From positions 1 through 62,811 of IMG/VR virus record IMGVR_UViG_3300038393_002510: a stretch of DNA of 62,811 bases. One strand, written 5' to 3'. The first letter of the stretch is position 1, and each line of letters begins with the position of its first letter. The notes under the pieces are model-generated. The model did not search any database, was not told where the DNA came from, and saw only the letters and a list, made by a program, of their open reading frames with translations. This DNA is from a virus. Taxonomy: Duplodnaviria > Caudoviricetes. This document shows, one piece after another, positions 1,474 through 60,863 of this stretch. Made by a program: the position numbers and the translations under genes.

Positions 1474-2111
1474 GCTGCTGCCTTTTCGATGTCGACCCGC
1501 TCGCGGAAGCGCTTGGTCAGGGTGAGGGAGGGGGCGAGTTCGGCCGTCAGGTCGGTGTGGGTCGTGGCGACCATCAGCGTCCGGCCCTGCCGGCGCGCGA
1601 CCTTCTGGCTATTGAAGGCGACGACCTTCGCCGTGACCCGGTCGAGCACGGCGCCGAACTCGTCGGCGATCCACACGTCGGCCCCGGACTCGAGGACCTT
1701 TGCGAGCTTCAGGCGGTAGCGCTGGCCGTCGGACAGCTCCGACGGCTTGCGGATGTAGATCCAGGCGTCCGAGATGCCGGCGAGCGCCAGGAGGTGCGTC
1801 GCGTCGGTCATGGAGGTGCCGACCTGCTCGATCACCGGGCGGTCATCGAGGACGATCTCGTTGAGGTCGGCGACCTTGAGGCCACCGGCGCGCATCTGGG
1901 CGGCGAGCTCCTTCAGGAGCAGCGACTTGCCCGAGCCCGACTGGCCGGTGATGTAGACGACGTCGCCGGCGGCCACGTCGACCTGGAGCCCGTCGTAGAT
2001 GACGAACTCCTTGTCGGAGAGGCCCAGGCCGAAGCCCTCGGCGACCTCGAGCACGCGCGGGGTGCGCTCCACCGACGAGGTGAAGCTCTTGGAGATGGTG
2101 TAGGTGGTCAC
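1470..2111 (-). CDS. soluble ABC-family ATPase (phage GNAT-associated type)
   Basis: Walker A GQSGSGKS, signature LSDGQRYR, Walker B WIADEF, H-loop TTH; no permease nearby. Confidence 0.9.
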   Translation of the reverse strand: MTTYTISKSFTSSVERTPRVLEVAEGFGLGLSDKEFVIYDGLQVDVAAGDVVYITGQSGSGKSLLLKELAAQMRAGGLKVADLNEIVLDDRPVIEQVGTSMTDATHLLALAGISDAWIYIRKPSELSDGQRYRLKLAKVLESGADVWIADEFGAVLDRVTAKVVAFNSQKVARRQGRTLMVATTHTDLTAELAPSLTLTKRFRERVDIEKAAA

Positions 2112-2596
2112 GCGCCGTCCTCCGGGTCCAGGTCCGGGTCCTCGGCGTCCATGTCGATGTAGACGGGCGCGTCGGTTGCCTCGAAGGCGGCCGCCGTCGG
2201 CGAGCCGATGCGTGAGAGCACCTCGACCTTGCCTTCGCAGAGGTCGGTGAGGTTCCGCTCCAGGACCTTGAGCGAGCCGAGCATCCGGGCGGCGCCGTCG
2301 GCGACCGAGAGCCCGATGGGCAGCGAGACGTGCGCCTCGAAGACCTTGTCGGCCTCGTTCCAGGTGATCGCCGCGATGCCGCGGGTGAGGCCTTCCTCGA
2401 AGTCCTCGACGAGGCCGGTGACGACCTTCAGGCTCTCGGTGTCGACCGTGCCCTCGGGCAGCTCCTCGGTCTCAGCCTCCTCGGGCGGCGGCTCGTAGGG
2501 CGCCCGGGTGAAGATGTGGAACACCTTCGGGGCGTCCGGGTCGGCCGACACCTCGGTGAAATACTTCTTGCGCAGGTCGTTGAGGGCATCGCTCAT
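2108..2596 (-). CDS. acidic hypothetical protein
   Basis: Coupled ORF with normal codon usage. Confidence 0.7.
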   Translation of the reverse strand: MSDALNDLRKKYFTEVSADPDAPKVFHIFTRAPYEPPPEEAETEELPEGTVDTESLKVVTGLVEDFEEGLTRGIAAITWNEADKVFEAHVSLPIGLSVADGAARMLGSLKVLERNLTDLCEGKVEVLSRIGSPTAAAFEATDAPVYIDMDAEDPDLDPEDGA

Positions 2597-3481: not shown

Positions 3482-4206
3482 AGCGGCTCTCCGAAGGCAT
3501 CGTCTTCGGGGACGTCACCCTCGGAGCCTTCCTCCTCGGCGCCGGGCACGGGTGGCACGGCGGCGCCGAGGAGGAGGAAGCAGAGCGCGTCGCCCGCGTT
3601 CATCAGGGCGGTGCCGGCGTCAAAACCCTGGCGCTTGGCCGTGCGGGTGATGAGGTCGGTCAGGCGCTCCGCGTCGGCCAGCGGCACCTGAAAGCGCATC
3701 ATGGCGTGCGTCTTCGGGGCGGTGGCGACCGGGGTCTCGTGTTCCGTTGCGGTTTCGGACTCGGTCTCGTCTAAATCCAAGTCCTCCAGCGCTATAGTCG
3801 AAGACGAGAAGATCGACGTGAGCTCCTCGTCCGTGAAAGGCATGGTCTCCTGAAAGCCCTCGACGTCTCCCAGGCTCTTGAGCAGCAGCGCCAGCTCGCT
3901 GGCGTCGTCCTGCCCGTAGCGGGTGTTGTCGATCAGGCCGATCTTCTTGGCCTCGTCCTCGTCGATCGGGCCGAAGTTCAGCACCGGGACCAGGGGAAGA
4001 CCGAGATCGGTCGCGACCTTCCAGCGATGCTCGCCGCCCAGGATCTCCAGGCCGGTGTCGGTCTCGCGCACCAGGATCGGGCGCACGATGCCGCGCTGCC
4101 GGATGGAGGCGGTGAGCTTGGCCTCGTTGTCCGGCGCGACGTGGTTGGAGTTCCACGGGTTCGGCCGGAGCTCGGACGGCGCGATCTGGAGTGACTTGGG
4201 ATGCAT
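3478..4206 (-). CDS. ParB/Srx N-terminal domain protein
   Basis: LRPNPWNSN, PILVRE, ILGGEHRWKVA, DNTRYG. Confidence 0.9.
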   Translation of the reverse strand: MHPKSLQIAPSELRPNPWNSNHVAPDNEAKLTASIRQRGIVRPILVRETDTGLEILGGEHRWKVATDLGLPLVPVLNFGPIDEDEAKKIGLIDNTRYGQDDASELALLLKSLGDVEGFQETMPFTDEELTSIFSSSTIALEDLDLDETESETATEHETPVATAPKTHAMMRFQVPLADAERLTDLITRTAKRQGFDAGTALMNAGDALCFLLLGAAVPPVPGAEEEGSEGDVPEDDAFGEPL

Positions 4207-5979: not shown

Positions 5980-6186
5980 ATGAGCCAGAAGCCGCGCCTC
6001 GTCGACCCGGTTCACCTCTTCGATGAGCGTGGGCACGCCCTGTCGTCCTACGACGTCCAGGACGCCCGCATCCGGGCGCTGGAAGCCGAGAACCGGCGGT
6101 TGCGCTCGAACCTCGAGCGGATCAACGCGATCCTGACCAAGAGCAGGGCCGCGAACGCCGAGAAGTCACCGCCCCGTCTGCACTAG
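5980..6186 (+). CDS. small coiled-coil hypothetical protein
   Basis: ORF directly after the helicase. Confidence 0.6.
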   Translation: MSQKPRLVDPVHLFDERGHALSSYDVQDARIRALEAENRRLRSNLERINAILTKSRAANAEKSPPRLH

Positions 6187-6252
6187 CAGCGCGGGGTTTT
6201 CTCGTTTCCCACCAAGGGCTTAGTGTGCCCTGCAACATAAGTCAGCACTGAC

Positions 6253-6843
6253 ATGACACACGACGTCACCATCCCCCGCTACATCGCGCTGTGCGGCAAC
6301 CCGGGCTCGGGCAAGAGCACCGTCCAGCAGATCCTCCGCGACAGCTACGGCGTGCAGCCGGTCGACGACGGCCACGTGATCCGCGCGATCGCCGTCGAGC
6401 ACATGGGCCTCACCTGGGACCAGGTCCGCACCCAGGAGGGCAAGCGCGAGACCGTGCATCTCGCCGGCAAGGACTGGATCGTCCGCGACCTGCTCGGCCA
6501 GATCGGCAACCAGCTCGAGGCGCTGCTCGGCCCACACGCGATGCCGTTCCTGGCTGAGCGCCTGGTCGCCGACAAGCCGGGCTCGTTCTCGTTCGGCTCC
6601 ACGCGCCGCGACCAGGGCGCCTATTTCCGGGAGCGCGGCGGCGTCGTGATCGAGATCGTCAGCCCGAACGCCCCGCCCTCCCCTTACGCGTTCGACCGCT
6701 ACGACCCGAGCGTCGTGGACGTGACGATCCAGAACGATGGCGTGAGTCTGCGTAACCTGGAGCGGGCCGTGTTCGACGCCCTGAAGGAACTCGAGGCGCG
6801 CCGCACCGAGTGGCTCTCGCGCGTGCTGCGGAAGGTCGCGTGA
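6253..6843 (+). CDS. deoxynucleoside monophosphate kinase-like P-loop protein
   Basis: IALCGNPGSGKST, RDLLGQIG, IQNDG. Confidence 0.75.
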   Translation: MTHDVTIPRYIALCGNPGSGKSTVQQILRDSYGVQPVDDGHVIRAIAVEHMGLTWDQVRTQEGKRETVHLAGKDWIVRDLLGQIGNQLEALLGPHAMPFLAERLVADKPGSFSFGSTRRDQGAYFRERGGVVIEIVSPNAPPSPYAFDRYDPSVVDVTIQNDGVSLRNLERAVFDALKELEARRTEWLSRVLRKVA

Positions 6844-6958
6844 TGATGCGCTGGGCGGACTTCTGGCTCCGGGCTGCGATGACCGCCCAGGGCCTCACCA
6901 TCTGCTACTGGACGGCCGTCTCGCGTGAGGCGGCCGCCATGCTCGAGGAGGACGCGCG

Positions 6959-7732
6959 ATGAGCTTCGACCTGTTCGGCAGCCCCGCGAACTGGGTGACG
7001 TCGACCAGCACCGCGATCGCCCCCTACAGCACCGCTCCCATCAAGGGCACCCGGGCGCCGCACGATCACCTCGAGGTCCGCTGCGATCACACCAACCGGC
7101 TGCTCGGCTGGCTGTCGGGCATCAACGCCCGGAAGGTGCCGGCCGACGAGCCGCTCGTGTTCATGGCCGATACCGGCGACCTGGTGATCGAGGACGAGGA
7201 CGGGGTTCACACGCAGGGCCTCGCCACCGAGGTCCGGGTCGCAGGCTTCGAGGCGACCTTCTCGCGCTACCTCGACGTCTCGGAGATCACCAACACGCTG
7301 CACCAGACGGTCCCGGAATACGCCAACCGCACCGTGCTGCCCGACAAGAAGACCTGCCGCTACGACTGGGCCGCGGCCGTGGTCGAGCCGCACGAGCACG
7401 AGGAGCTCTTCGACTTCGACAACTTCATCCCCTACGGGGTCGAGAACAAGGAGCTCGTGGACGCCGAGGCGCGCTTCCACCGGCTCGCCCGGCCCGCGGG
7501 ACTGGGCCCCTCCCCGCTCCTGAAGCCGGCGACCACGGCGCCCGCTGTCTCGACGCTGGGGCTCGCCACCAAGGCCAGCCAGGACCTCACCAAGGCGCTC
7601 ACGGGCGCGAAGGTGCCGGTCTCGGAGCTGGGGAAGACGCTCAACCAGCTCGGGGCGGCTGCCATGAAGGCCGGGACCGAGATGAACCGTGTGATCGAGC
7701 AGCAGCTCGGCAAGGCGATCCAGGGACGCTGA
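6959..7732 (+). CDS. hypothetical protein
   Basis: GAGGAGG RBS; normal codon usage. Confidence 0.7.
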   Translation: MSFDLFGSPANWVTSTSTAIAPYSTAPIKGTRAPHDHLEVRCDHTNRLLGWLSGINARKVPADEPLVFMADTGDLVIEDEDGVHTQGLATEVRVAGFEATFSRYLDVSEITNTLHQTVPEYANRTVLPDKKTCRYDWAAAVVEPHEHEELFDFDNFIPYGVENKELVDAEARFHRLARPAGLGPSPLLKPATTAPAVSTLGLATKASQDLTKALTGAKVPVSELGKTLNQLGAAAMKAGTEMNRVIEQQLGKAIQGR

Positions 7733-7983
7733 GCGAGCCTGAAGGTGACGCCCGCGCCAGCGGGCGGAAGCCGAGCGGGCTCGCGCCCCAAGGGCCAGAG
7801 CGTCGAGATCCTGAGAACCTGAGAACCGAGAGCCAAGGTCCGGGAGCCTGAGATCCGCTCGACCGTCCACCAAGGCTCAGTTCCAACTGAGCGGCTACCG
7901 TCCGCCAAGGGTCGATCTGGGGAGTGCGCGGCAACCCGTGGCATAGCCTCCGAGGGCGTGCGAAATCCCTAGGACTTCGCACT

Positions 7984-8016
7984 GTGTCCGACCCGCTACA
8001 GTGGCAGGTCGGACAC
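7984..8016. terminator. hairpin between convergent genes
   Basis: GTGTCCGACC / GGTCGGACAC 10-bp inverted repeat. Confidence 0.55.
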
Positions 8017-8021
8017 GCCCC

Positions 8022-8138
8022 TCAGTAATCGCAATCTGTGGCGAAGAAGTGACGTATGGCCCGAAGGACACGACGCTTGAAAGTGTAGTGGAGCGCGAAG
8101 GTCTCGGCGTTCATCTCGGCGATATCGGAGAGGGTCAT
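8022..8138 (-). CDS. small hypothetical protein (38 aa)
   Basis: MTLSDIAEMNAETFALHYTFKRR...; shares the leader motif found upstream of the 8948 gene. Confidence 0.45.
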   Translation of the reverse strand: MTLSDIAEMNAETFALHYTFKRRVLRAIRHFFATDCDY

Positions 8139-8251
8139 CTGTCTAACTCGCTTCTGTGTTGCTGACGATTACTTGTCGCACGCCCCCGACAGGGGGTCAA
8201 GTCACCGGTGACTTATCAACAGCGTGCGAGAAAATCGCATTAGCGCGTCGG

Positions 8252-8316
8252 TGAGACGCTTCGCGCGTCTCAGAGCTAGATCTGCTCACTGAGACGCTTC
8301 GCGCGTCTCAGTGAGC
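8252..8316 (-). terminator. two tandem hairpins downstream of the GG/CC-free gene
   Basis: TGAGACGC-TTCGC-GCGTCTCA (8252-8272) and a 14-bp perfect stem GCTCACTGAGACGC/GCGTCTCAGTGAGC (8284-8316); both are GG/CC-free. Confidence 0.7.
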
Positions 8317-8327
8317 TTGCTAGACGC

Positions 8328-8948
8328 TTAGAGCGCGACGCTCAGAGCTTTAGCTAGACGCTTCGTCGTTGCAGCGCTCAGATTGAGCGAATATGCAACT
8401 TCATTGCGTTCATCGCGCGTTTCTTTGAGAACGTCGAACATTTGCAGCGCGTTAATGCTGCTAGAGCTTTGCGTGTCAGCAGTATTCGCTGCAACAGTCT
8501 TAGCATAGCGCACGATATGTTGAGCTTTTGCAGCGTCAGCGCGCAGATCAACACACAGCGACGCTTGTGCATCTTTGTGCGTCATCGTCATGTTAGCTTT
8601 CGTGAGCTTAAGAGCAGTCAAGAAAATGCAGCGCGTGTAATTGTTGAGCGTATCAGCAGCAGCAGCAGAGCGCGCAATGTTAGCGACTTTCTGAGCGCTA
8701 TAGACGTTGAAGCGCTTGTTGCGACGCTCTTGACGATTGATAAAGTTAGCGTCGACGTTTGCGCTGTGCATAACTTTAACGACAGCTTCGTGAGAGAAAT
8801 CAATCGCGAGATTGTCGAGAGTCTTTTGAATGTTCGTGTTCTCAGCGTTGCACTCAATCTCATAAGACTTGCGAGCAGCGATCGACGTCTGAAGAGCGAC
8901 GCTGTAGTTCGCGACAGCTTCGTTCTGAGCGTTGTTGAGCTTCGTCAT
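8328..8948 (-). CDS. GG/CC-free gene; 206-aa putative winged-helix protein lacking Gly, Pro and Trp; paralog of 10253-11194
   Basis: ATG at 8948 (MTKLNNAQ...). Aligns with 10253-11194 (NIQKTL/NIHKTL, VDANFINR/VDPSFINR, FNVYSAQKVA/YNVYAVDKVA, TQSSS/TQASS, TKRL). Confidence 0.85.
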   Translation of the reverse strand: MTKLNNAQNEAVANYSVALQTSIAARKSYEIECNAENTNIQKTLDNLAIDFSHEAVVKVMHSANVDANFINRQERRNKRFNVYSAQKVANIARSAAAADTLNNYTRCIFLTALKLTKANMTMTHKDAQASLCVDLRADAAKAQHIVRYAKTVAANTADTQSSSSINALQMFDVLKETRDERNEVAYSLNLSAATTKRLAKALSVAL

Positions 8949-9249
8949 GACTGTGTCTCTCTGTGTGTGTGTTGCTGACGATTGAGAGAATACAGAGTCG
9001 GCAGATCGGCTCAAGAGCACAAAGCGAGAACAGAGCGAAAAAGTCAGCGGGAGGTGATTATTTTTGATGGGACGCACTTTCTCGTGCGGAGTGCGGAAAT
9101 GCCACTCGACGGGCGAGCGGAACTCCGTGGAGCCAGGATGGATTGTGCGCAATCGAATTGGGCACAACTCGATTGGGGTCAATTCAATTGGGGTCGATCG
9201 AATCACGCCCGATGGGCTCGGGCTCGATCGAGTCGTGCCCGACGCTTCC

Positions 9250-9490
9250 GCCCCATGGCGCCCCATGGGAGCGACCCCATGGCTACCTACCAAGCGGGGC
9301 CCCTAGCCGTTCCTAAAATCCGCAGCCGGAAGAGTCCAGCCCCACGGTGGCCCGAGGCGACCCACGGTGCCCCATGGGATCAGCCCCAGGAAGCCCCAGA
9401 ATTGGCCCAGGAGCGGCTCCATGGGTCTCGGAGCTGTCCATGGTGCTCCGGAGGCTCCCGTGGGCGTCCCTGGCGCTCCCATGGGGTTTG
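9250..9490. repeat. CCATGG/CCRYGG cluster 1
   Basis: CCATGG at 9253, 9263, 9277, 9372, 9419, 9438, 9479. Confidence 0.8.
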
Positions 9491-9503
9491 CCCGACACGA
9501 AGA

Positions 9504-9530
9504 AGGGGCAGCCCGGGATGGACTGCCCCT
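9504..9530 (-). terminator. intrinsic terminator
   Basis: AGGGGCAG/CTGCCCCT stem followed by a pyrimidine tract on the minus strand. Confidence 0.6.
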
Positions 9531-9557
9531 CGCGCTACGCGGGCGCGGTGACTGGGA

Positions 9558-9854
9558 TCAGAACTGCTCCTCGCGGAGCATCTCCTTCTGGAAGCGGGCA
9601 CGGGCGCGGAGGCGGTTGCGCTCGACGCGGGCGGTGCGGTGCGCGTAGCTCGCGGCCCGGGTCGCCTGGCCCATCGTGACGACGTTGCGCTCGGCGTCGA
9701 GGAGCTGGGAGAGGCTCAGGAGGTTCGAGCGGGCCTGGGCGGTGATCTCCCGGGCGTGGGCGCGCTGCATGTCGCGCGTCTCGGTCTGGAGGCTGTCGAG
9801 GTAGTCGGCGCACTCAGCGAAGCGACGGGCGACGGAAGCGATGAACTTGGTCAT
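9558..9854 (-). CDS. hypothetical helical protein
   Basis: Start MTKFIASVARRF at 9854. Confidence 0.7.
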   Translation of the reverse strand: MTKFIASVARRFAECADYLDSLQTETRDMQRAHAREITAQARSNLLSLSQLLDAERNVVTMGQATRAASYAHRTARVERNRLRARARFQKEMLREEQF

Positions 9855-10039
9855 GACTTGCTCTCGACTAGGTGAAGCGCTGCGCTTCGTTGTTGACGAG
9901 ACTGTTCTATCAAGTCGTGACGAGCTTGTGCGCGGAAGACCGAAGGATCTGCTTGGCGCTTTATGGGGCGGATACTTACGGGAGACGCTCTGTGGGAGCG
10001 GGGATCCCGGTATGGGCGGTCCGGGGCGCGGGGTCCGTC

Positions 10040-10200
10040 TCCCATGGGGTTCCATGGTAGGCCGTGGCCTGATGGACCAGGCCTGGCCTAGGCCTCATCC
10101 CATGGCCGGCCGTGGCGTTCGCGTGACCGTGATTCCCACCATGGCCGGCCATGGGAGCCTCTCCGACCGGAACCCCTAGCCGTTCCTGGATCCCATGGTG
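10040..10200. repeat. CCATGG/CCRYGG cluster 2
   Basis: CCATGG at 10042, 10052, 10100, 10139, 10149, 10193; CCGTGG at 10062 and 10110. Confidence 0.8.
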
Positions 10201-10212
10201 GATCCGAGCCAG

Positions 10213-10240
10213 AGAGAAAGGGAGCCTCGCGGGCTCCCCT
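10213..10240 (-). terminator. intrinsic terminator
   Basis: GGGAGCC/GGCTCCC stem followed by TTTCTCT on the minus strand. Confidence 0.65.
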
Positions 10241-10252
10241 CCCCTCTCGGTG

Positions 10253-11194
10253 TTAGGCTGCCTTCTGGAAGAGCACCTCCTCGAGCCGCTTGGTGATCGG
10301 GCTGTCCGTCAGGGTGAAGGTCGGGTTCCGCGAGGAGCCCTCCCGCTTGACGATCCCGAGGGTCTCGAGGGCCTGCATCGTGGAGCTCGCCTGGGTCGGC
10401 GCGGTCGAGGCGCTGACCGTGTGCCGGAGCAGGTGCTTGCGGATCGCGAGGTCGATGTGGTGCTTGTCGGAGGCGCAGGCCTTCGCGACCTCACCGGTGA
10501 AGGGCAGCCCCGCTTTGCGCATCTGGAAGAGCGAGACCATGCAGGCCCGGTTGATCGCGTTGGAGATCACCCCGTCGGCGATCCCCTTCACCGCGTCCGC
10601 GACCTTGTCGACCGCGTAGACGTTGTAGCGGGAGCCGTCGTGGAGCGTGCGGTTGATGAAGGAGGGGTCGACCTGGGCCGCGAGCATCACGCGGGAGGTG
10701 TCCTTCCACATCAGCGCCTTGCGGACCTTGTTGAGGGTCTTGTGGATGTTGTGGTGGCTCCCGTGCTTCTCCGTCTCGAAGGCGGAGCGGGCGTCGATCG
10801 CCGCGGTGATCCGGGCGGTCATGCCCTGGACCGCGATCTCGTCGTGGGCGTTCATCAGCTCCCGGAAGCTGCGCTGGGCGGCGTCCTCCCGCTCGACCGT
10901 CTCCTCGAGGGTCTCGGGGCTCTCGGTGGCCTGGTCCTCGAGGACCGTCTCGGTGGCCTCGTGGGCGAGGACCTCTGCCTCGGCCTCGTCGGACCGGATG
11001 TCCTCGAGGGTGGCGAGGGCGGCGTCCAGGTCCGCATCGTCCGTGAGCGTCTCGGCCGCGAAGGTCTGGGTGAGAGAGGCGGCGCGGTCCTCCCGACGCA
11101 TGTGGTCCGTGTAGTCGGAGATGTGGGCGCCGTAATCGTTGGCGGTCAGGACGGACTGGGCGGCGATCTTCTTGGAAGAGGTCTTGCGGGCCAT
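10253..11194 (-). CDS. acidic N-terminus plus putative winged-helix C-terminus; normally coded paralog of 8328-8948
   Basis: AAGGAG RBS and start MARKTSSKK; C-terminal ~190 aa align to the GG/CC-free protein. Confidence 0.85.
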   Translation of the reverse strand: MARKTSSKKIAAQSVLTANDYGAHISDYTDHMRREDRAASLTQTFAAETLTDDADLDAALATLEDIRSDEAEAEVLAHEATETVLEDQATESPETLEETVEREDAAQRSFRELMNAHDEIAVQGMTARITAAIDARSAFETEKHGSHHNIHKTLNKVRKALMWKDTSRVMLAAQVDPSFINRTLHDGSRYNVYAVDKVADAVKGIADGVISNAINRACMVSLFQMRKAGLPFTGEVAKACASDKHHIDLAIRKHLLRHTVSASTAPTQASSTMQALETLGIVKREGSSRNPTFTLTDSPITKRLEEVLFQKAA

Positions 11195-11309
11195 CTGTCG
11201 AACTCCTTGTTTCGTGAAGCACTGCGCTTCGTTTCGACAAGAATGACTATGATGATCCCACAGACCGGATGCTAATGGCGCGTCGTGGGACTTACGACAC
11301 TGCCTCAAA

Positions 11310-11655
11310 GACCATGGCCTATACGCGCGTGTGCTTTACATATGTCGGAAGAGGCCGTCCCATGGGGTGCCGCGGGCGCCCGTGGTGTTCCGAGGAGATC
11401 CGTGGGATGCCATGGGGCGGAGCCCCGCGGGTGTTCCGGGATATCCAACTCGGAAAAACGCCATCGGCCTGTATGTATATACCTACTATCTCTAATAGGT
11501 TTTAAGAACAGGCCGACGGACTTGGATATCCAACGGTCCGGGACACCCACGGGGCTTCCCATGGGAGAGGTGTAGGGACAGAGGCACCGGAACACCCGCG
11601 GGCGTGCCCCATGGGTTTCCATGGTCCGGGCCGAGAGGGGCCCCTGGCCGTTCCT
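11310..11655. repeat. CCATGG cluster 3 with a large imperfect inverted repeat around an AT-rich core
   Basis: CCATGG at 11312, 11360, 11410, 11559, 11609, 11619; arms ~11410-11472 and 11508-11564. Confidence 0.75.
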
Positions 11656-12297
11656 GATTTCGGGCTTGGAGTGTGACCGCGACCGGTCCGGGTCAAGGAC
11701 TCGCGGAGGCACCGCGTTCTCGCCGGACCGGTCGAAGCGTCAACAACACAGCCGCTCAGAGAGCAGGAGCGCCGCCTACGCGCTCGACTGATGCTGACAG
11801 AGATACCCGGTCCGCGTGTCGCTGTCATGCGGGGCACCGAGGCTGGTTTTCCCGTGGGTGTGGAGAGTGTGGGTCGCGGCCGGCCTGATGCGTTCTTCTG
11901 AGAGGCTCACTCCCCACTGACACACGCTCATGGGGCTCACCTCTCCCCTCCCCTGTCTCTCTAAGGGCTCCCTCTCCCTACGTTCTCTCACCCCTGGAGC
12001 GGTCTCTCATGGGTGTGCGTTCCTAGTGCCTTTCTCGCTAGGGGTGTCGTGTGCGTGAGGTCCCTCCCCTCTCATGGCGCATCGTGCTTCTCGCTCTAGG
12101 GATCGGGGCTCTGTGCGTGCTCTCTCTCGCTATGCTCATGTGAGCGTCCCTGTGTCGGGGGATCGCTTGAGAGCGCTGGTGAGCGTGTTCCTCAGTCTGA
12201 GATGAGCGCGTGCGCGTTCGTTCGCTGGGAGCGTCTCAGCGCGCGTTTCTGACTCTCCCGGGATTTGTCCGTTTGGATGCAAAATCGCGTTTGGGGT

Positions 12298-19273: not shown

Positions 19274-19801
19274 TCAGGCGGCGAGCGCCATGGCCTCCAC
19301 CTCGCACAGCACCTCGGGCCAGAGGCTCGGGTGCCGATCGGCCGTGCCGTTGAGGATGGTGATCGCGGACTCGACGTGCTCACGCATCAGGCCCGTGGCG
19401 AAGCGCGGCTTCACGAAGAACGGCCGCTGCTCGGGGAGCATGTCGCAGTCGTCGTCCAGGATGCAGTAGCGGGGCGTCCTTGGGTGACGGCCGAGCCACT
19501 CACGGATCTGGCAGCCGCGCCGGGCCCGCGGGTGCTCGTTCGGCACCCAGTCTCGCGTGGTGCGCCAGTCCTCGTGAAACTGCCCCGCGAAGCCGCCGGC
19601 GATCAATCGCTCGCGCAGGCCGTCGTCGCTGCGCCAGGTCGAGGAGACGACCACCCGGCAGACCGTGGACAGACACAGCAGGTTGAGGAGCTGCATCTTC
19701 CACTCGGGGATGTAGCGCGGGTCGCGGGAGCCCCAGAGCTCCTCGCCGGACAGGATCACCCCGTCGATGTCGAGAAACAGGACGGGGTGGTCTGGCCTCA
19801 T
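19274..19801 (-). CDS. HAD-domain protein (Swiss Army Knife RNA-repair type)
   Basis: LFLDIDGV, VVSSTWR, YCILDD. Confidence 0.85.
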   Translation of the reverse strand: MRPDHPVLFLDIDGVILSGEELWGSRDPRYIPEWKMQLLNLLCLSTVCRVVVSSTWRSDDGLRERLIAGGFAGQFHEDWRTTRDWVPNEHPRARRGCQIREWLGRHPRTPRYCILDDDCDMLPEQRPFFVKPRFATGLMREHVESAITILNGTADRHPSLWPEVLCEVEAMALAA

Positions 19802-20037
19802 GCCTCGCGCCTCTCGATGACGGCCTGCACGTTCTCCGGGCGGGCAGCGAGGATCGCCGCCTTGCACGCCTTCATCATCAAGCCCTGCTCGGCCCGGCTG
19901 TAGGTCTCCCAGGCCAGGACGGGGCACTCCTTGTTCGGGTGGAGCCGCACCCAGGCCCGGCGCCATTCGGCGAGCCAGGACTGGGTAGCGATCTCCAGCG
20001 CCGTCAGGGAGAGAGCGGACGCCGGAGACGGCGCCAT
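19798..20037 (-). CDS. hypothetical protein
   Basis: Coupled ORF. Confidence 0.6.
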   Translation of the reverse strand: MAPSPASALSLTALEIATQSWLAEWRRAWVRLHPNKECPVLAWETYSRAEQGLMMKACKAAILAARPENVQAVIERREA

Positions 20038-32817: not shown

Positions 32818-34515
32818 TCAGCCCTTGAGATTGCCCAGGGCGATGTGGCGCGCGAGGCTCTTGCGGCACATGCCCAGCGCCTTGTCGATCTGCCGGAGCG
32901 TGGCGCCCGCGCTGAGCATCTCCTGCGCCTTGTCGAGCTTGGCGCGATACTCGGGCGTGATCGTCTGGACCGGAGCCTCGGCGCGGCGCCCTTCCTTGAT
33001 CCGCGGGGCCGTCTTGACGTTCTGCGCCTGGGCGCTCGCCGACGGCTGCATCGGGACAGGGGAGGGCGGCGCCGGGCTCTGGGCGGGGATGTCCTCGGCC
33101 TTGGTGACGATCGCCTTGACCAGGGTGTTGTTGACCCCGAGCGAGCCGAACTGGACCGACTTCACCCGCACGCGGCTGGCGCGGCCGTCGTTCGAGACCC
33201 GCTCCACCGAATAGTCGCCGTCGGGGAGCTTGCTCGAACCCACGATCCGCACGATGTCGCCGGGCTTGGCGAGCTGCCAGGGCTCGGTGCCGGTCGGCTC
33301 GGTCTGCTGCGGGGCAGGGGAGGGGGCTGCCGTCACCGTCAGGCGATCAATCGAAACCCAGGCGCCGCTCACCAGCGCGGTGCCGCCGTCGACCGCAGCG
33401 ACCGGGACCGCCTTGCCCATGCCGTCGATCTTCACGAGCGCGTCCTTCACCAGGCCCGGCGCCACCTGCGGCTCATTCCCGGCCTGCACGTCGGTGACGG
33501 CCTGCTTGGCGTTGCGGATCGCCTTCTTGATCGTCTTCGGGTCGACCGCCTTGGGCTTCGACTTGATGACGCGCGCCTTGTTGCGCGGGGCCGTCACCTC
33601 GACCTTCTCCAGCACCTTGACCGTGTGCTCGCCCTGCCTGCCGACGAGGACCTCTTCGATCACGCCGATGTGCTGGCCGGCGATGACCTCGGCGACGACG
33701 CCCTTGGCGCCCTTCGCGGTGAGCGCCGAGCGCTTGGCCGAGACCGCCTCGTGCGAGCCCTGATCGAGCGCTGCCACGATGTGATAGGCGAGCACGCGCA
33801 TCTTGGACGACTCGTGGTGCGGGACCGCAACGACGTCCTCGGGCCGGACCTTCACGAGCAGGATGCGGTTGCCATACTGGCCGTAGGAGGCCGCGCAGAC
33901 GTGCAGGCCGGTGCCGCAGCTATCGCGGGTGTCGAGGTAGTCCTTCTTGTCCATGTAGACGCGCGAGCCGATCCGCTGGCGCACCTTCTTGGTGTGGTGA
34001 TCGACGTAGTAGCCCTCGTCGCTCGCGGCATCGAGGAACTTGTAGAGGACGAGACAGCCGTCGTCGGCGAGCGGCAGATCGACCTTCTCCATGAAGCGCA
34101 GCACCTCCTGGGCGGTGTCCTTGTGCTGCACCTTGGCGAAGCGCTCCAGGAACGCCGCGAGGCCGGGCGAGCCCTCGTAGGCCGCGCGCTCGATGTGCTC
34201 GGTGAGGGTCTGGGCGTTCTCCAGCTTGTCGCCGGCGGCCGTGGTCAGCGCGATCTTGGACACGCCGTCCTCGACCTTCTCCTCGACCTTCATGGCGCCG
34301 CCGGTCGCCTCCTGAATGATCTTCGCGAGGCTGAACTCCTCGAGGTCCACCTCGATGGGCTCGCCACCCGCGCTCGCCAGCGGCAGCAGCACCGCCTTGA
34401 GCAGATCGCCGGTGCGCCAGGAGTCCTGGCCGTAGACCGCGCTCTGCCCGGTCGGGAAGAAGAGGGTGATGCCGTTCTTCGACGCGATGGCGCCGGATAC
34501 CTTCGTGAGTGCCAT
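32818..34515 (-). CDS. rIIB: rIIB-like protein with C-terminal HTH
   Basis: LPLADDGCLVLYK, SCGTGLHV, LVKVRPEDVVAVP, KMRV..Y; directly follows rIIA. Confidence 0.85.
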   Translation of the reverse strand: MALTKVSGAIASKNGITLFFPTGQSAVYGQDSWRTGDLLKAVLLPLASAGGEPIEVDLEEFSLAKIIQEATGGAMKVEEKVEDGVSKIALTTAAGDKLENAQTLTEHIERAAYEGSPGLAAFLERFAKVQHKDTAQEVLRFMEKVDLPLADDGCLVLYKFLDAASDEGYYVDHHTKKVRQRIGSRVYMDKKDYLDTRDSCGTGLHVCAASYGQYGNRILLVKVRPEDVVAVPHHESSKMRVLAYHIVAALDQGSHEAVSAKRSALTAKGAKGVVAEVIAGQHIGVIEEVLVGRQGEHTVKVLEKVEVTAPRNKARVIKSKPKAVDPKTIKKAIRNAKQAVTDVQAGNEPQVAPGLVKDALVKIDGMGKAVPVAAVDGGTALVSGAWVSIDRLTVTAAPSPAPQQTEPTGTEPWQLAKPGDIVRIVGSSKLPDGDYSVERVSNDGRASRVRVKSVQFGSLGVNNTLVKAIVTKAEDIPAQSPAPPSPVPMQPSASAQAQNVKTAPRIKEGRRAEAPVQTITPEYRAKLDKAQEMLSAGATLRQIDKALGMCRKSLARHIALGNLKG

Positions 34516-36920
34516 TACCGTGAGGTCTCCTTGCTGCGGGCAGCGTGGCGCTTCGCCAGCTCCTCGGTGAGGTGGATGAAGTCGTCGAGCTGGTCGCCCG
34601 CGAGCCCGGACGGGTTCACGTTGAGGTTCGCCAGCAGTTCGAGGTGGTCGGTGCGCAACCACCAGCGCTCGGAGCCGAAGGTCCGGGCTTCGAGAGGCAT
34701 CGCGAGTTCGCGGTATTCCTCATAGTAGCGCTGGATGAGCGCCTGCTCGTCCGCGTCCATGTGCTGCCCGCGGACGTGCCGCTGATGGAAGACGAGCCGG
34801 GCCAGCATCCAGAGTTCGTAGGCCTGGTCGCGGTCGGCGCTCTGCTTGTAGGGCTCGCGCACGGCCGCGTGAGCGATCCGCCGGCTGGTCCGCATCATCT
34901 TGGATGAGAAGCCGGTCCTGCGCCCGTCGTCGCTGCCGTCGAGCGCCCGGACAGCCATCCGGGCGTAGAAGGCCTCGTAGGGCTTCGGCCGCTTGGTGCG
35001 CGCCCGCAGCTTCTCCAGGATGATCTCCTCGATCCGCCGGACGCCCTGCGCCTCATACCACTCGAAGCGCTCGCGCTTCGTCGCCACCGCGACCCGGCCG
35101 ATGAGCTTGCGCGCCAGGTTCGCGCGCAGCGCCTCGTGCATCGTGTCGTGGATCACCAGCGCCGGCTGGCTGTCGTTCGTCGTGCCCCTGGCCGTGAACA
35201 CGGCGTCCGGTGTGAAGAACTTCTGGGAGCGGTTGAGCGTCCGGACGTCGTGGCACGGCCCGTCCGCCGGGATGAAGCGGCGCGGCGTGTGGCCGGAGAT
35301 CCCGAACAGCAGTGGGAACTCAGGGGTCTCGGGGCCGTAGAAGCGCGGCGCCTCCTTCTTCTCCCGCTTGACCTTGGGCGGCGCTGCGACCTCGTCGACC
35401 TTCACCTTGTAGTGCGCGGCCCGCGCCTTCAGCGCGTCGATCTCGGCCGGCGGCAGCCGGGCCGTGGAGATCGCGAAGCCGTCGTTCATGTTGTCGGAGA
35501 TGAGCTTCTGGGTCGGCGCCAGGGTGATGCGCGGCTCGAAAAGCCGATGGTGGTAGAAGGGGTAGGCGTCGGGCGACTTGATGCCCTTCAGCCGCGCGCT
35601 GCTGTGGTCTCGGGTGAGCAGCAGGCCGGCGAGCGGGCCGGCCACACGGACGATGCGCTTGCGCAGGCGGAAGTAGCGCTCGGCGATCAGGTCGTTGGTG
35701 AGCGCGTCGCCACCGCGAACGCTGTAGGAGTATGAGTTGCACTGCGGGAGCAGGTTCTTGAGCGAGCGCCGGCTGTCCGAGAAGCGCTGGACCGCCTTGA
35801 GGACGAAGTCGCGCCGGGAATACTGCCCCTCGCGCACCCAGAACCGGGCCCGGTCCATCGCGATGGCGTCGGGGCCGACGAAGTCCTGACCGCTGGTCCA
35901 GACCAGGTTGCGCTTGTCGCGGTGCAGGTGCAGCGTGTCGCGGGTGAGCTTGTCCATCAGCTCGCCCAGCGCGATGTCGCGCTTGCCAGGCATCGCCGCC
36001 TCAATCTCGCGGATCGCGTTGTCGAGGAGCTTGCCGATCACCTCGACCGTGATCTCGTCGTAGGACAGGCTCTCGCGGCTCGGCGTCACGCCGATGGTCG
36101 AGGGCTGCGCGTAGAAGACGATGGGCGCCGAGCCCCGGCCGACGAGTTCCTTGATGCGCTCCATCCTGAGGTGGAGGCTCGGGTTGCTGTCGATCGGGTA
36201 GATGACGTTGGCGTAGAGGAGCCTCAGCCGGTTGGAGCTCTGGTTGGCAATGCTCCCGAAGACGCCGTAGCCGACCTCCTTGAGCCCCGTGAAGTCCGGG
36301 GCCTCCAGCGTCGCGCCGTTGAGGCGCACGTTCATGCCGCCCTCGCGCACGATCTCCTTGATGCAGCGCTCGATCTTGGAGTGCATGCCGGGCGCGAGCG
36401 GGATCGAGACCTTCAAGCCCCGGGCGTCCGTCGGCACCTTCATCATGCGCTTGGCGGACGGGCAGTCGTCCTCTTCCGGGTCGCTCGCGACCATCGCGTA
36501 GAGCGACTTGGTGCCGGCGTGGTTGCTCTCGACCGTGAAGTGATCGGTGATCGAGAAGGGCGCCTTGCACCCTAAGCCGAAGCCGCCGGTGACGCGCTTG
36601 TCCTTGGCCTTCTGAGAGCCGAACAGCGTGCAGTAGATCTCCACGATCTTCTCGTGGGGAATGCCGTTGCCGGAGTCGGCGACGATCATCTCGTCTTCGG
36701 TCAGCGTGACATCGACCGGCTCGTCGGGGAGCCCGGCCTCGATGTTGGCGTCGACCGCGTTGCAGATGACCTCGCGGACGGTGGCGCGCTCTTTGTCCCG
36801 ATAGAGCGTATCGGACATGATCTTGAACGCAGCCGCGGACGCCGCGACTTGGAATTTTGCAGCTTTCTCGCCGCCGATGGCGACAAAGCTGTCGCTCTCG
36901 TTGATGTGGGTTACTTGCAT
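34515..36920 (-). CDS. rIIA: rIIA-like protein with GHKL/HATPase N-terminus
   Basis: LY....VRE.ICNAVDA, D.GNGI, GGFGLGCKAPFS, TPSRESLSY. Confidence 0.88.
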   Translation of the reverse strand: MQVTHINESDSFVAIGGEKAAKFQVAASAAAFKIMSDTLYRDKERATVREVICNAVDANIEAGLPDEPVDVTLTEDEMIVADSGNGIPHEKIVEIYCTLFGSQKAKDKRVTGGFGLGCKAPFSITDHFTVESNHAGTKSLYAMVASDPEEDDCPSAKRMMKVPTDARGLKVSIPLAPGMHSKIERCIKEIVREGGMNVRLNGATLEAPDFTGLKEVGYGVFGSIANQSSNRLRLLYANVIYPIDSNPSLHLRMERIKELVGRGSAPIVFYAQPSTIGVTPSRESLSYDEITVEVIGKLLDNAIREIEAAMPGKRDIALGELMDKLTRDTLHLHRDKRNLVWTSGQDFVGPDAIAMDRARFWVREGQYSRRDFVLKAVQRFSDSRRSLKNLLPQCNSYSYSVRGGDALTNDLIAERYFRLRKRIVRVAGPLAGLLLTRDHSSARLKGIKSPDAYPFYHHRLFEPRITLAPTQKLISDNMNDGFAISTARLPPAEIDALKARAAHYKVKVDEVAAPPKVKREKKEAPRFYGPETPEFPLLFGISGHTPRRFIPADGPCHDVRTLNRSQKFFTPDAVFTARGTTNDSQPALVIHDTMHEALRANLARKLIGRVAVATKRERFEWYEAQGVRRIEEIILEKLRARTKRPKPYEAFYARMAVRALDGSDDGRRTGFSSKMMRTSRRIAHAAVREPYKQSADRDQAYELWMLARLVFHQRHVRGQHMDADEQALIQRYYEEYRELAMPLEARTFGSERWWLRTDHLELLANLNVNPSGLAGDQLDDFIHLTEELAKRHAARSKETSR

Positions 36921-37003
36921 TCGTCCTGCTCTGTGTGCGTTTGCGTTCGCAATACTGTTTATAGTCTTGCGAACGCGGGTTGTCTCAGTCAGCGCTGACT
37001 TAT

Positions 37004-37606
37004 TTAATGGAGGCTCGAGGACGCCCGCTCCTGGGCGTTCTTCTCCAGCCAGTTGACGATGACCTCGCAAGCGCCCTCGACCCGGGTCTGAAGGTCCGTG
37101 GCCGTGATCCGCACCATCGTCGGGCCGCGGAGCATCTGGGCGGCGCCTTCCATCAGCCAGTGGGTGTGCCACTGGTAGGCGGCGTTGGCCGGCGCCTTGC
37201 CGTCGGCGACCTGGTAGCTCCCGAGCGGGACCGGGATGAAGATGATGGCGAAGGTCTGGTTGGCGAGCGTCAGCGCCTTCTCGCAGTAGAGCCGGATCCG
37301 CTCACCCTGCTCGGGCGTGGTCGCGTGCATGCCGACCTCGGCCATCATGTAGCCGACGAGGTCGATGGGCGTGCGGTCGACGAGGCTCTGCCGGGGCAGG
37401 GCGTCCATGATCTCGGCGTAGCGCTTCAGATAGAACTCCTGCGCCTCGATCCGCTGCTCGATCGGCAGGTTGCCGATGTTCTCGAAGCCGCCCTCGGCCA
37501 TGATCTCGGCGGTCTTCATCTCGTGGTAGTTGAAGCCGAGGTTCTCGGCGCAGAGGCGCGCGAGGGTGCTCTTCCCGGTCCTGGATGCTCCTGTGAAGCC
37601 GATCAC
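37004..37606 (-). CDS. P-loop nucleotide kinase (AAA_28/dTMP kinase-like)
   Basis: IGFTGASRTGKSTLA, VDRTPID. Confidence 0.8.
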   Translation of the reverse strand: MIGFTGASRTGKSTLARLCAENLGFNYHEMKTAEIMAEGGFENIGNLPIEQRIEAQEFYLKRYAEIMDALPRQSLVDRTPIDLVGYMMAEVGMHATTPEQGERIRLYCEKALTLANQTFAIIFIPVPLGSYQVADGKAPANAAYQWHTHWLMEGAAQMLRGPTMVRITATDLQTRVEGACEVIVNWLEKNAQERASSSLH

Positions 37607-57450: not shown

Positions 57451-60400
57451 TCACTCCGTCAGCGACGCCGCGACCTCGAACACCTCGTTGAGCTTCGCCT
57501 GCTTGGACGCCTCGTGGAAGATCTCGCCTGGGGCGAAGCCGATCACGAGGTTGGCGTCGAGCTCCTTGTGGTAGACCACCTCGCCCGCGACCTCGGACGC
57601 CTTGCCCTTGAAGTCGGGGATGAACTGGCGAACCGTGGTCGAGCCGAGCAGCACGATCACCGGCGGCTTGAGGATCTCGATCTCGCGCTGGAGATATGGT
57701 GCGTAGGTCGCGATCTCGGACGCCGAGACCTGCTTGCCGGCCTTGGGCCGCTTGATGAGCGCGGTCCAGTAGGCGTCGGCCCGCGAGAGGTCGTTGGCGT
57801 CGAGCGCCTCCTGGACCCACTCGCTGACGCAGTAGCTGCCGCGGTTGTCGTAGCTCATGCGCCCGGACGCATCCTCACCCTTCGAGGGCGCGTCGAGGAT
57901 CACCATGAAGCGCATGTTCTTGCCGGTGGTCATCTTCACCGGCATGCCGTCCTCGGCGCAGCCGTCCGAGTAGTCGGCGAACACCTCCAGGATCTTGATC
58001 CGGCTGTCCCGGTCCTTGTGCATCTCCCGGTTGATCGGAACGTGCGCCGTGATGAGGCCCGGGATCAGCTCGCGCTGGTCCTTGATCCGGTCGGGGTGCC
58101 GGCGATGGAGCTGACCCGGCTCGATGTCGGCGAAGGCACCGACCAGGTCGAGGAGCCCGACGTGCTTGACGTTGCAGCGGCGCCGCTCGACCCGCTCGGA
58201 CAGGTTGGCCTTGGACGTGAACGGCCCCTGCCCGTCGTTCCGCGCCTTCAGGATCGCCTCCGTGGTCAGCGCCGAGATACCCTTGATCCGGTTGAAGGGC
58301 ATGCAGAGGCGCGTGTCGGTCACGATCTCGAACTGGCCCGTGGAGTGGTTGATGTCGGGCAGATCAACCTCGATGCCGAGCCGCTCGGCGTCCTTCATCA
58401 GGCCCGGCAGCTTGTCCTGGGGCATCAGCGACAGGGCGGCTGCGAAGAACTCCACCGGGTAATGGGTCTTGAGATACATCGCCTGATAAGAAATCAAGGT
58501 GTATTCTACGGAGTGACTCTTGTTGAACCCGTATCCAGCGAAGCCTTCGATCTTGTCGAACAACTGTCCGGCCCATTCCGGCGTGCATTCGACTGTCTTG
58601 ATGCAGCCGTTTACGAACTTGCCGCGCTCCTTTGCCATTTCCTCGGGGAGCTTCTTGCCCATGATCTTGCGGAGCTTGTCGGCGTCCGCGCCCGAGTAGC
58701 CGGCGATAACCTGGGAGGCCTTCATGACCTGCTCCTGGTAGACGAACACGCCGTAGGTGGGCGCCAGGACCGGCTCCAGGAGCGGGTGGTCGTAGTCCAC
58801 GCTCTCGTGGCCCTGCTTCCGCTTCCAGTAGCTGTCCATCATGCCCGACTCCATCGGGCCTGGCCGGTAGAGCGCGGTCGCGGCCGTGATGTCGTCGAAG
58901 GTAATCGTGCCGTCGCGCCCGAGCTCCTTAAGAAGTCGGCGCATACCGCCGCCCTCGAACTGAAATATTCCGGTCGAGATCGCGCGGGCGAAGTTGTCGA
59001 GCACCTTCGGCTCATCGAGCGGGATCCGCAGCAGGTCGACCTTCTTGCCGCGCCGCTTGCGGATGTAGTCGAGGGTGAGCGCGATCAGGTCGAGGGTGTT
59101 GAGGCCCAGGATGTCCATCTTCACGAGGCCCTGGTCCTCGACGATGCGCTTGTCCCAGCACACCACCGGCAGATCCGGCACCGGCTCCTCGCCTTCCTTG
59201 GGCTTGGCCGGGGCCTTGCGCCGCTCGATCACCGCGCGCTCGACCAGGTCGACGCCGCCCACGACGACGCCGGCGGCGTGCTGCGAGAGGTTGCGGAGCG
59301 TGCCTTCCAGCTTCTCGGCCGTGTCCCAGATCTCCGGGTTCGCGCTCTTGAAGGCGGCGATCTCGGAGACCTCCTCGGCCGCGACCGTCAGCTTGACCGG
59401 CTGGCCGTGCTTCTTCGGCACGAACTTCGAGCAGCGGTAGAGCTCCTCGTTGAGCCCGAACACGCGCGACACGTCGCGGATCGCCGATGAGGCGCCCAGA
59501 CGCCCGTAGTTCGAGACGCCGGCCACGCGCGCCGTCCCATACTTGCGGATGAGATACTGGAACACCTCGTGCCGGCGCTCGGACATGAAGTCGAGGTCGG
59601 CGTCGGGAAGGTCGATACGCTCGGGGTTGATGAAGCGCTCGAACAGAAGACCGAAGCGGATCGGGTCGCAGTCGGTGATCCCCATCAGGTAAGCGACGAG
59701 TGAGCCACCCACGGAGCCGCGGCCCGGGCCGACCAGGATGCCCTGGCTCTTGGCCCACACGACCACGTCCTGCACGAGGAGGAAGTAGCCCGAGAAGTTG
59801 AGGTTCTTGAGCACGGACAGCTCGTAGCGCAGCCGCGGCTCGTAGACCGCCTTCAGCTCGTCCATGTCGGGCCGGTGCCCGAACACCTCCGCCGTGAAGC
59901 GCTCCTTCCAGCCGACCTTGCAGGCGGCCACCACAGCCGCGAACTCGTTGGGCGCCATGACCGGCAGCGAGGGCGCCGACTTCACCCAGGCGAACGTGAC
60001 CATGTCGACGAGGCGCGCGGTGTTCTTGAGGCCTTCCGAGAAGCGGCCCTTGGTCGGCACGCCCCGGTATTCCTCGAGCCGCTTGGCCGCGGCCTTCACG
60101 TCGCGCACCAGCTCGGGCAGGGTCTTCGGGTGCAGGTCGCGCACCGCGTTGAACCACGCCCAGGGCTCGGTGAGCTTCACGTTGCGGGTGACGGCGTTCA
60201 TGATGTCGGCCGCGTCCGCGGAGCCTTCCTCGTAGAGGGCAGGGGCCGCGACCAGCGTCGGCAGGCCGAGCTCCTCGGCGAGCGCCAGCGCCTTGACGTT
60301 CTGCGTGTCCCAGTAGGGCGTGTCGACCGGCACCAGCGTGCAGAACGTATTAGACGCGCTCAGAGCGTCGGAAATCTTGCGTAGTATCTGAGACGCTGAC

Positions 60401-60855: not shown

Positions 60856-60863
60856 GTTGAGGA

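Follow-up and report, generated by a model that had tools for sequence, protein, structure and literature searches.

The 62,811-base-pair (bp) window that we analysed, meaning positions 1 to 62,811 of the IMG/VR virus record IMGVR_UViG_3300038393_002510, contains a 750-bp island (8251..9000) from which the dinucleotides GG and CC are entirely missing, and which holds the gene for a predicted winged-helix protein (P0001) along with its leader and terminators. By its sequence, the window is a fragment of a ~117-kilobase (kb) Hyphomicrobiales soil phage-plasmid, whose lineage includes the Rhizobium phages B1VFA and RHph_X66 and the plasmids pLM21S1 and pAMS5a. We tentatively favour, while giving it less than an even chance, a reading in which selection has kept this operon free of targets, so that an activity directed at GG:CC steps in duplex DNA cannot act on it. 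Here, selection rather than mutation as the cause, DNA rather than RNA as the target, the GG/CC-directed activity itself, and the timing of expression are what we infer.

GG and CC together amount to 11,380 dinucleotides in the window (66.6% GC), or 18.1% of positions. Their longest absence is bounded by the GGs at 8250-8251 and 9000-9001, and the next-longest GG/CC-free run in the window is 91 bp. A preliminary description of this DNA, made by a model from the letters alone, had noted that no GG or CC lies between these two positions, which our whole-window dinucleotide count confirmed, and its rough expectation of ~90 such dinucleotides at ~50% GC compares well with the 96.4 that we computed from the local base composition (50.5% GC). 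In fact, 20,000 shuffles of the island gave a mean of 96.0 GG+CC (standard deviation 7.8) and a minimum of 66, with a log10 P(zero) of about -45, and among the other dinucleotide pairs in the window, a comparable gap was seen only for TA, which is rare generally. Within the island gene, GG/CC is zero at each of the three codon phases (16, 79, and 98 in its paralogue P0002), and the choice of alanine codons is inverted, with 24 GCT and no GCC in the island gene as against 29 GCC and no GCT in P0002. Since it extends over all codon phases as well as over leader and terminators, the constraint acts on nucleic acid and not on protein.

The same ban holds among related replicons. In a pool of 13 strict islands (13,547 nucleotides, nt), GG/CC occurs zero times against ~1,570 expected, GC and CG are enriched, and no dinucleotide besides GG/CC is avoided, and outside the island the rest of each replicon carries 14-18% GG/CC. 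Such strictness suggests that each single occurrence is costly. At sites where a G or C would be harmless, G/C-ending codons make up 65-84% in the island genes and 97% in the paralogue. As for longer words, GCGC, CGCG, and AGCT sites are plentiful within the islands, and GTAC was found twice in the 13 pooled islands against 12.5 expected, with the other GG/CC-free tetramers being less depleted.

The island gene lies on the minus strand at 8331..8948 (ATG at 8948 and stop codon at 8328-8330), and its translation agrees with the earlier statement that the 206-residue product has no Gly, Pro, or Trp. At 7 nt 5' of the ATG, the minus strand reads AGAGAGA (8956..8962), a GG-free substitute for the Shine-Dalgarno sequence, just as the preliminary description had it, and the ACACAGAGAGAGACAC leader is kept in relatives. 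Further upstream in the leader is the motif AATCGTCAGCAACA (8970..8983, minus strand), of which a second exact 14-nt copy (8157-8170) precedes the truncated next gene; a search for this motif returned six matches at no more than two mismatches, two of them exact, against 0.2 expected. At the other end of the gene, and also on the minus strand, there are two hairpins, both of which we confirmed to be free of GG/CC, as had been claimed for the terminator stems. The first (8284..8316) has a 14-bp stem, and the second (8252..8272) is a repeat of the same TGAGACGC..GCGTCTCA stem, with the island ending at its foot. Together, these hairpins fold strongly (-57.3 kcal/mol, z = -4.2).

As far as sequence can tell, the island thus outlined coincides with one transcription unit, from about -20 of a putative promoter to the terminators. 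This was also the view of the preliminary description, and it is upheld by a promoter-like site on the 5' side and hairpins on the 3' side, a pattern that is kept in relatives. In the window, the promoter-like site is of host type (8987..9015, minus strand) and consists of CTTGAG/TTGAGC, a 16-nt spacer, and TATTCT, with the GGs at 9000-9001 and 9008-9009 both in the spacer. Methylobacterium-type loci have a similar CTTGnn-17-TATTCT site at 60-75 nt before the ATG, and here too the last GG/CC is in the spacer. We infer these promoters from conservation; a stringent consensus promoter scan did not call the window site at 8987-9015, and a simple promoter regular expression returned too few sites to judge how unique the island promoter type is. 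Nonetheless, in 14 of the 14 tabulated loci, the last GG/CC at the 5' edge falls within or just past the -35-like half of the conserved promoter-like element, and in locus L011, where this element is 450 nt before the ATG, the entire leader is GG/CC-free. The 3' edge falls at or shortly past hairpins built from allowed dinucleotides, and in L009 the island stops at the stop codon, with GG/CC returning only inside the base-paired stem of the terminator. The islands of relatives hold two to three co-oriented genes, namely the regulator together with one or two small, variable genes that match no known family. The third of these genes is reduced, in the window, to a 38-residue remnant (MTLSDIAEMNAET..., 8022..8138, minus strand), which is found outside the island, beyond the hairpins, and has normal GG/CC. 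Because the islands of relatives span two to three genes, while this remnant past the hairpins is of normal composition, the extent of the island tracks the operon, not the protein.

We found 50 homologues of P0001, with protein identity down to ~41%. Gly, Pro, and Trp are all absent from 33 of these 50, Trp is absent from every one, and the sum of Gly and Pro is never more than five. The GG/CC-free gaps of the window and its relatives, for which the preliminary description had proposed a sliding GG+CC count, revealed a single island in each complete replicon that has one, and the winged-helix regulator gene is in every island. Apart from the Methylobacterium oryzae-type clade, each complete relative has one island of 0.7-1.5 kb. 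Over the orthologue, the uninterrupted run is 1,531 bp in pAMS5a/L004, 1,373 bp in L011, 1,334 bp in pLM21S1, at least 1,294 bp in L024, 1,102 bp in L025, 979 bp in L009, 951 bp in L007, 942 bp in L022, 899 bp in Pararhizobium p5, 851 bp in B1VFA (at 42.4-43.3 kb of the 122-kb record), 830 bp in L021, and 724 bp in Shinella. The next-longest gap is just 74 bp in B1VFA and 73 bp in pLM21S1, and in pAMS5a it is 151 bp (adjoining the island) and then 91 bp. Some runs are split, as in Shinella (724 and 151 bp), Pararhizobium (899, 137, and 95 bp), and pRlX6 (475 and 383 bp), and the islands of RHph_X66 and pRlX6 have one GG/CC exception each.

Other islands are leaky, as in L002, with 26 GG/CC in 2.2 kb, and also in L001, L006, L010, L019, and L023. 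On the sense strand, the GG:CC ratio of these leaky islands is 9:45, and that of fully relaxed orthologues is 34:124. We dropped the asymmetry of the leaks (mostly CC on the sense strand) as evidence, as the relaxed orthologues have a near-identical ratio, and for the same reason the leaks are no more strand-biased than expected under neutrality. In one clade, which comprises the M. oryzae plasmid, L003/L017, and L018, the island is gone entirely; here, 12-17 GG and 44-49 CC were counted in the gene, and 89 bp is the longest gap in the M. oryzae plasmid. Contigs of 168, 117, and 106 kb belong to this relaxed clade. The loss is recent, because the backbone of the window is closest to this clade, and in agreement with this, the codon bias of the relaxed genes at unconstrained sites has yet to return to normal. 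In L020, the island seems to have been lost a second time, in part.

A bipartite 39-nt element of the form GGCATAGCC-N19-CTAGGACTTC occurs in the window at 7940..7978 (plus strand), from where it points at the island from the 3' side, and L013 has a copy at 3818-3856. In Rhizobium-type and other loci, the island begins inside such an element (GGCATCCCC, 19 nt, TCTAAGACTTC), which forms the 5' edge, with the GG/CC-rich half outside the island and the remainder inside. Using a regular expression, we found the element beside the island in 18 of 20 loci, and variants of it in the other two (L011 and Pararhizobium). The element (GGCAT.., 19 nt, ..CTAAGACTTC) is always directed into the island, and each genome has a single exact copy of its downstream half. 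It may be a promoter for a special sigma factor or a protein-binding site. Of the 20 loci examined, nine have the regulator gene in the same orientation as the element and nine, the window included, have it opposed, and otherwise the gene order around the element is identical in B1VFA and the window. From this shared flanking order with opposed gene orientation, it follows that the cassette was inverted in one lineage and gained a promoter on what is now its upstream side. Being unaffected by inversion, its freedom from GG/CC was kept throughout, and both gene orientations fit a strand-symmetric constraint.

To place the product of the island gene, we turned to its predicted structure. The AlphaFold2 model of P0001 (predicted local distance difference test score, pLDDT, of 91) is helical in its N-terminal half and forms a winged helix towards the C-terminus, with elements that include helix 154-170 and strands 174-178 and 184-188. 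In VIA-align searches, residues ~93-205 matched MarR, ArsR, and PadR regulators with Z scores of 7-8 (maximum 8.0) and root-mean-square deviations of 1.9-3.2 Å over 72-84 residues, and the C-terminal half also matched the globular domains of linker histones (Z of 7-8); Z scores of 7-8 are in a range common for this tool and bear only on fold, not function. The model supports P0001 being a winged-helix DNA-binding regulator by fold. A TQSSSSINAL motif is invariant. For P0001, Pfam gave nothing above threshold, the best being DUF6387 (E of 0.0077) and HTH_IclR (E of 0.1), both below the cut-off, and PHROGs, PADLOC, NCBIfam, and Pfam made no assignment for P0001, P0002, or P0003. Likewise, Pfam had no match for six accessory island genes of relatives, the ESM Atlas returned unnamed clusters only, Rfam gave two matches on window positions 7500-9700, both far under the gathering score, and a megablast search of the island region against a phage collection found no match. 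Among sequencing runs, no RNA data set was listed for positions 6000-12000 of the window, and the only run to contain this region in full was a soil metagenome, which may be where the window comes from.

Upstream of the island gene is its paralogue P0002 (313 residues; 10256..11194, minus strand), which shares 32% identity with P0001 (E of 5e-26) and is of normal composition, with 97% GC at third codon positions and 193 GG/CC; a paralogue of normal composition was found in five of the five complete records searched. Between this paralogue and the island gene is P0003 (9561..9854, minus strand), which encodes a small basic protein. We also noticed intergenic arrays of CCATGG/CCGTGG-type (CCRTGG) palindromes, spaced by ~10 bp, at 9240-9390, 10030-10165, 11350-11640, and ~12650 of the window, upstream of the island, P0003, and P0002, and these could be operators or iterons.

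Along the rest of the window, the open reading frames (ORFs) keep the same order as in the M. oryzae plasmid (80-95% amino acid identity), pAMS5a (50-78%), and B1VFA (35-73%), and the backbone shared with the lineage includes a DnaE-type polymerase, RecA, a helicase, a ParB pair, an ABC ATPase, and a sigma factor. More specifically, the window encodes a gp32-like protein, an SbcCD-like pair, a class II ribonucleotide reductase, a dUTPase, a ThyX-like protein, RecA, two ParB_N proteins, an ABC-type ATPase, a helicase, sigma-factor-like proteins, and RNA-repair-type HAD phosphatases. The DNA polymerase III alpha subunit (57451-60987, minus strand) has a C-terminal fusion to a uracil-DNA-glycosylase-superfamily domain (residues 1024-1129). 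B1VFA carries structural genes and parA, parB, and repC on one replicon, and the 62.8-kb window fragment has no structural genes or repC. The siphophages B1VFA and V1VFA-S both have terminal repeats of 3.6-3.9 kb and parA/parB/repC, and their authors regard them as phage-plasmid-like (PMC12509600), and pLM21S1 is described, in the sections of its paper covered here, as a related plasmid-like prophage (PMC5537653). PNKP phosphatase and HAD_SAK_2 domains of RNA-repair type are encoded in the window at 382-843 and 19274-19966 (minus strand), and gene 017 of B1VFA is annotated as an RNA 2',3'-PO4:5'-OH ligase (RtcB type), which suggests that host defences based on RNA cleavage are of importance to this lineage. 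As for tRNA genes, the M. oryzae plasmid has none, pAMS5a has Met and Ile, pLM21S1 has Cys, Met, and Asn, and B1VFA additionally has Trp-CCA. We therefore rejected the idea that the replicon supplies the tRNAs at issue, the sets being variable and without consistent provision for Gly, Pro, or Trp, and the lone tRNA-Arg call of the window sits inside an ORF.

In the duplex-DNA reading that we tentatively favour, the winged-helix regulator operon would have been purged of the GG:CC step from about -20 of its promoter to its terminators, in one unit per replicon. A GG:CC-directed activity, be it a modified base, a nick, or a protein that binds tightly, would impair transcription of the replicon's ordinary DNA, and as the operon would be left untouched, host RNA polymerase could go on producing the regulator while the rest could not be read, whether at the entry of virion DNA or in a silent plasmid state. 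A single duplex rule that forbids GG on either strand accounts for both missing dinucleotides, and the protected object would be the DNA template because this one rule suffices, the purge ignores frame and coding limits, and it has survived inversion. The inversion and the absence of strand bias in the leaks both fit a duplex-DNA target, and the reading as a whole generalises the modification idea of the preliminary description. The preliminary description had argued from the joint absence of GG and CC that the constraint is on DNA and not on mRNA; this stands as the parsimonious choice, but not as a proof, as the same boundaries suit an mRNA rule that forbids two dinucleotides. In a more specific version, which we consider unlikely, the whole replicon would be silenced or marked via GG:CC, by modification or by a coat, with the GG/CC-free operon as the sole part readable by host RNA polymerase, and its winged-helix product, possibly acting at the 10-bp-periodic arrays, would open the rest via replication or derepression. 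If true, this would amount to a built-in 'boot sector' of the genome, set by dinucleotide composition alone.

Several observations weigh against a duplex-DNA target. No N4/N6 (PF01555) or C5 (PF00145) DNA methyltransferase was found in any of five complete relatives, though control genomes gave hits, which leaves room for enzymes of unknown families, and searches of the island genes with PADLOC and Pfam gave no GG/CC-directed enzyme. According to the covered sections of the pLM21S1 paper, no DNA methyltransferase was found in that element either (Decewicz et al., 2017; PMC5537653), and ordinary Illumina chemistry sufficed to sequence B1VFA virion DNA, with no trouble reported (PMC12509600). 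The bulky GG/CC modification of virion DNA put forward in the preliminary description is conceivable but has no direct support from our searches. In addition, repC, parA, and parB, which are expected to be needed early or in the plasmid state, have normal composition. The companion proposal of a pioneer gene read first after injection is not supported, as the B1VFA island at 42.4-43.3 kb would not be at the injected end if the record starts at the physical terminus. The boundaries of the island fit an mRNA-level constraint equally well, and the low use of G/C-ending codons at harmless sites could reflect a distinct mutational regime. Lastly, the islands of B1VFA and pLM21S1 run ~100-200 nt beyond a classic intrinsic terminator, which fits neither a DNA nor an mRNA version; in these Rhizobium-type relatives, the GG/CC-free zone past the terminator is at ~4590-4693 in L013 and ~66508-66700 in pLM21S1, and no reading that we considered accounts for the overrun.

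Nearly as likely as a duplex-DNA target, if still somewhat doubtful in itself, is immunity at the RNA level, whereby a transcript without GG/CC would survive a sequence-specific endoribonuclease or an RNA-binding repressor. The agent could be host-encoded, as in abortive infection or toxin-antitoxin systems, or phage-encoded, and the lack of Gly, Pro, and Trp codons would in addition make translation independent of tRNAs with CC or GG in their anticodons. An mRNA target would well explain why the island has the outline of a transcript (promoter-like site, leader, coding sequence, and hairpins), why the Shine-Dalgarno sequence is swapped for a GG-free one, and why, in L009, GG/CC reappears only in a base-paired terminator stem; that one hit inactivates a transcript would account for the absoluteness of the avoidance. 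Moreover, the lineage has RNA-repair genes (PNKP phosphatase domain, HAD_SAK_2, and, in B1VFA, an RtcB-type ligase) and tRNA genes, so that its conflicts with hosts appear to involve the cleavage of RNA. However, an mRNA target requires two forbidden dinucleotides, or else transcription of both strands, and a site-free mRNA should lose its sites on the transcribed strand only, whereas the leaky islands are without strand asymmetry. No nuclease candidate is found next to the island, as none of Pfam, PHROGs, PADLOC, and NCBIfam recognised a sequence-specific endoribonuclease among the island genes and neighbours, though one encoded elsewhere or by the host is conceivable. The tRNA sets are variable, Trp-CCA being in B1VFA only, and the B1VFA and pLM21S1 islands pass beyond an intrinsic terminator.

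A mutational sink is improbable. Here, a transcription-coupled process, such as a CC-specific deaminase or a lesion on exposed single strands, would destroy GG/CC at the rate at which it appears, so that the island would be a footprint of mutation to which the protein has merely adapted. The drop in GC from 66% to 50% is what such a process would leave behind, as is the excess of A/T-ending codons even where a G or C makes no GG/CC, and the boundaries fit the region that transcription melts; sequence already clean would also cease to be a target. Yet no deaminase or comparable gene was found, and a zero count in 13.5 kb across proteins that are 40-50% identical demands a very large excess of rate on both strands. 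Where Gly and Pro of the paralogue have been replaced, the changes are, judged by eye, not mainly transition products, and the rebuilding of the ribosome-binding site and terminators from allowed dinucleotides looks like selection.

Two further explanations are both very unlikely. Some CRISPR systems use GG/CC protospacer-adjacent motifs (PAMs) and many restriction sites contain GG or CC, so that an island without either would shield an early operon of anti-defence type from DNA-targeting host immunity; the two-strand symmetry is as predicted for PAM avoidance, and a conserved helix-turn-helix-type regulator accompanied by small, variable genes outside known families is a layout reminiscent of anti-defence operons. 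But shielding 1 kb of 117 kb leaves the replicon cleavable, the depletion is limited to one island of 0.7-1.5 kb per replicon instead of being genome-wide, and GCGC, CGCG, and AGCT are abundant in the island, with only GTAC being low (2 against 12.5). Furthermore, sense-strand CC is present in the promoter spacer, where a protospacer would span the -10 and the start site. Escape from self-silencing, in which P0001 or the paralogue would coat or repress the replicon via GG/CC-rich operators while its own operon avoids half-sites and stays on, would draw on the ~10-bp-spaced CCRTGG repeats upstream of the island, P0003, and the paralogue, on the match of P0001's DNA-binding fold to linker-histone globular domains, and on there being one island per replicon, but operator avoidance needs no removal of every GG/CC, a lone GG would not nucleate cooperative binding, and the plasmid-maintenance genes are of normal composition.

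Regarding the agent that a GG/CC-directed activity would require, the preliminary description had pointed to the ParB/ABC/GNAT operon. This link did not hold, as the island-free M. oryzae plasmid retains the operon (95% identity for the ABC ATPase and 81-84% for ParB), and the fourth gene of the operon, orf162, is without a homologue in the island-bearing pAMS5a and B1VFA. In the window, orf162 (2108-2596, minus strand) occupies a variable slot, with 37% identity in the M. oryzae plasmid as compared with 84-95% for the flanking genes. We also noticed a two-gene module at 32818-37172 (minus strand), made up of a GHKL ATPase ('N4 gp33-like' in one source) and a partner of 565-614 residues, the B1VFA counterpart of which is annotated 'N4 gp34-like'. 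This module is in 12 island-bearing relatives and absent from the island-free M. oryzae plasmid, and its two genes are the only large ORFs of the window that are found in island-bearing genomes yet missing from the relaxed plasmid. However, pRlX6 lacks both genes and still has an island (one exception), nothing ties the module to GG/CC, and we set it aside as the agent proper. The GHKL ATPase family is widespread in contigs sized like N4-like phages, its similarity to the Topo VI-B type is weak, and the partner's model (pLDDT of 69) matches only KOW/Tudor-like barrels. We thus regard the module as a weak lead.

Our literature search on B1VFA, pLM21S1, and GG- or CC-free sequence, with supplements outside its reach, found no description of the island, which is mentioned neither in the B1VFA/V1VFA-S paper (PMC12509600) nor in the covered sections of the pLM21S1 paper (PMC5537653). 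As signatures go, an absolute ban on one base-pair step over a whole operon is both very strong and highly specific, having removed three amino acids from a protein family and forced a new ribosome-binding site and new terminators. It implies that a dinucleotide-specific activity, with either DNA or RNA as its substrate, takes part in the conflict of phage or plasmid with host. As the island is carried by cultured phages (B1VFA, V1VFA-S, and RHph_X66) and plasmid-state strains, and as there is a natural island-free clade for comparison, this is directly testable. If found, the agent could be a new DNA mark, nuclease, or silencer, and the composition-defined immunity of one operon would be a new principle in gene regulation, useful for designing protected genes.

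Set against known systems, the island most readily calls to mind the avoidance of restriction sites and PAMs in phage genomes, which is a statistical, genome-wide depletion of 4-8-mers. Common to both is a depleted short recognition sequence that leaves a host activity without its target, but the island's avoidance is absolute, is limited to a single operon and a 2-bp step, and has reshaped a protein to have no Gly, Pro, or Trp. Transcripts without a short motif are also spared in the case of MazF with ACA-less transcripts and T4 RegB with GGAG, where a variant of the Shine-Dalgarno sequence matters as well; these, though, involve strand-specific 3-4-mers and a known nuclease, whereas the island misses both GG and CC, has no strand bias, and comes with no nuclease recognised among its genes and neighbours. 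T7 gene 0.3 (ocr) and the leading regions of plasmids share with the island the idea of a pioneer gene, but these first-expressed genes rely on their position at the entering end, and the island is marked by composition and located at 42 kb of the 122-kb B1VFA record. The Nt.CviPII/M.CviPII nickase and methyltransferase pair of Chlorella viruses shows that viral enzymes can have a 2-3-nt specificity centred on CC; in contrast, no homologous methyltransferase is found in five of five relatives, and to our knowledge no such island occurs in Chlorella viruses. As for the MarR, ArsR, and PadR regulators, the C-terminal half of P0001 superposes on these, but the N-terminal helical half and the TQSSSSINAL motif are foreign to those families. 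Overall, the nearest known phenomena, namely statistical site avoidance and nuclease-site-free mRNAs, differ from the island in scale, strictness, and strand symmetry.

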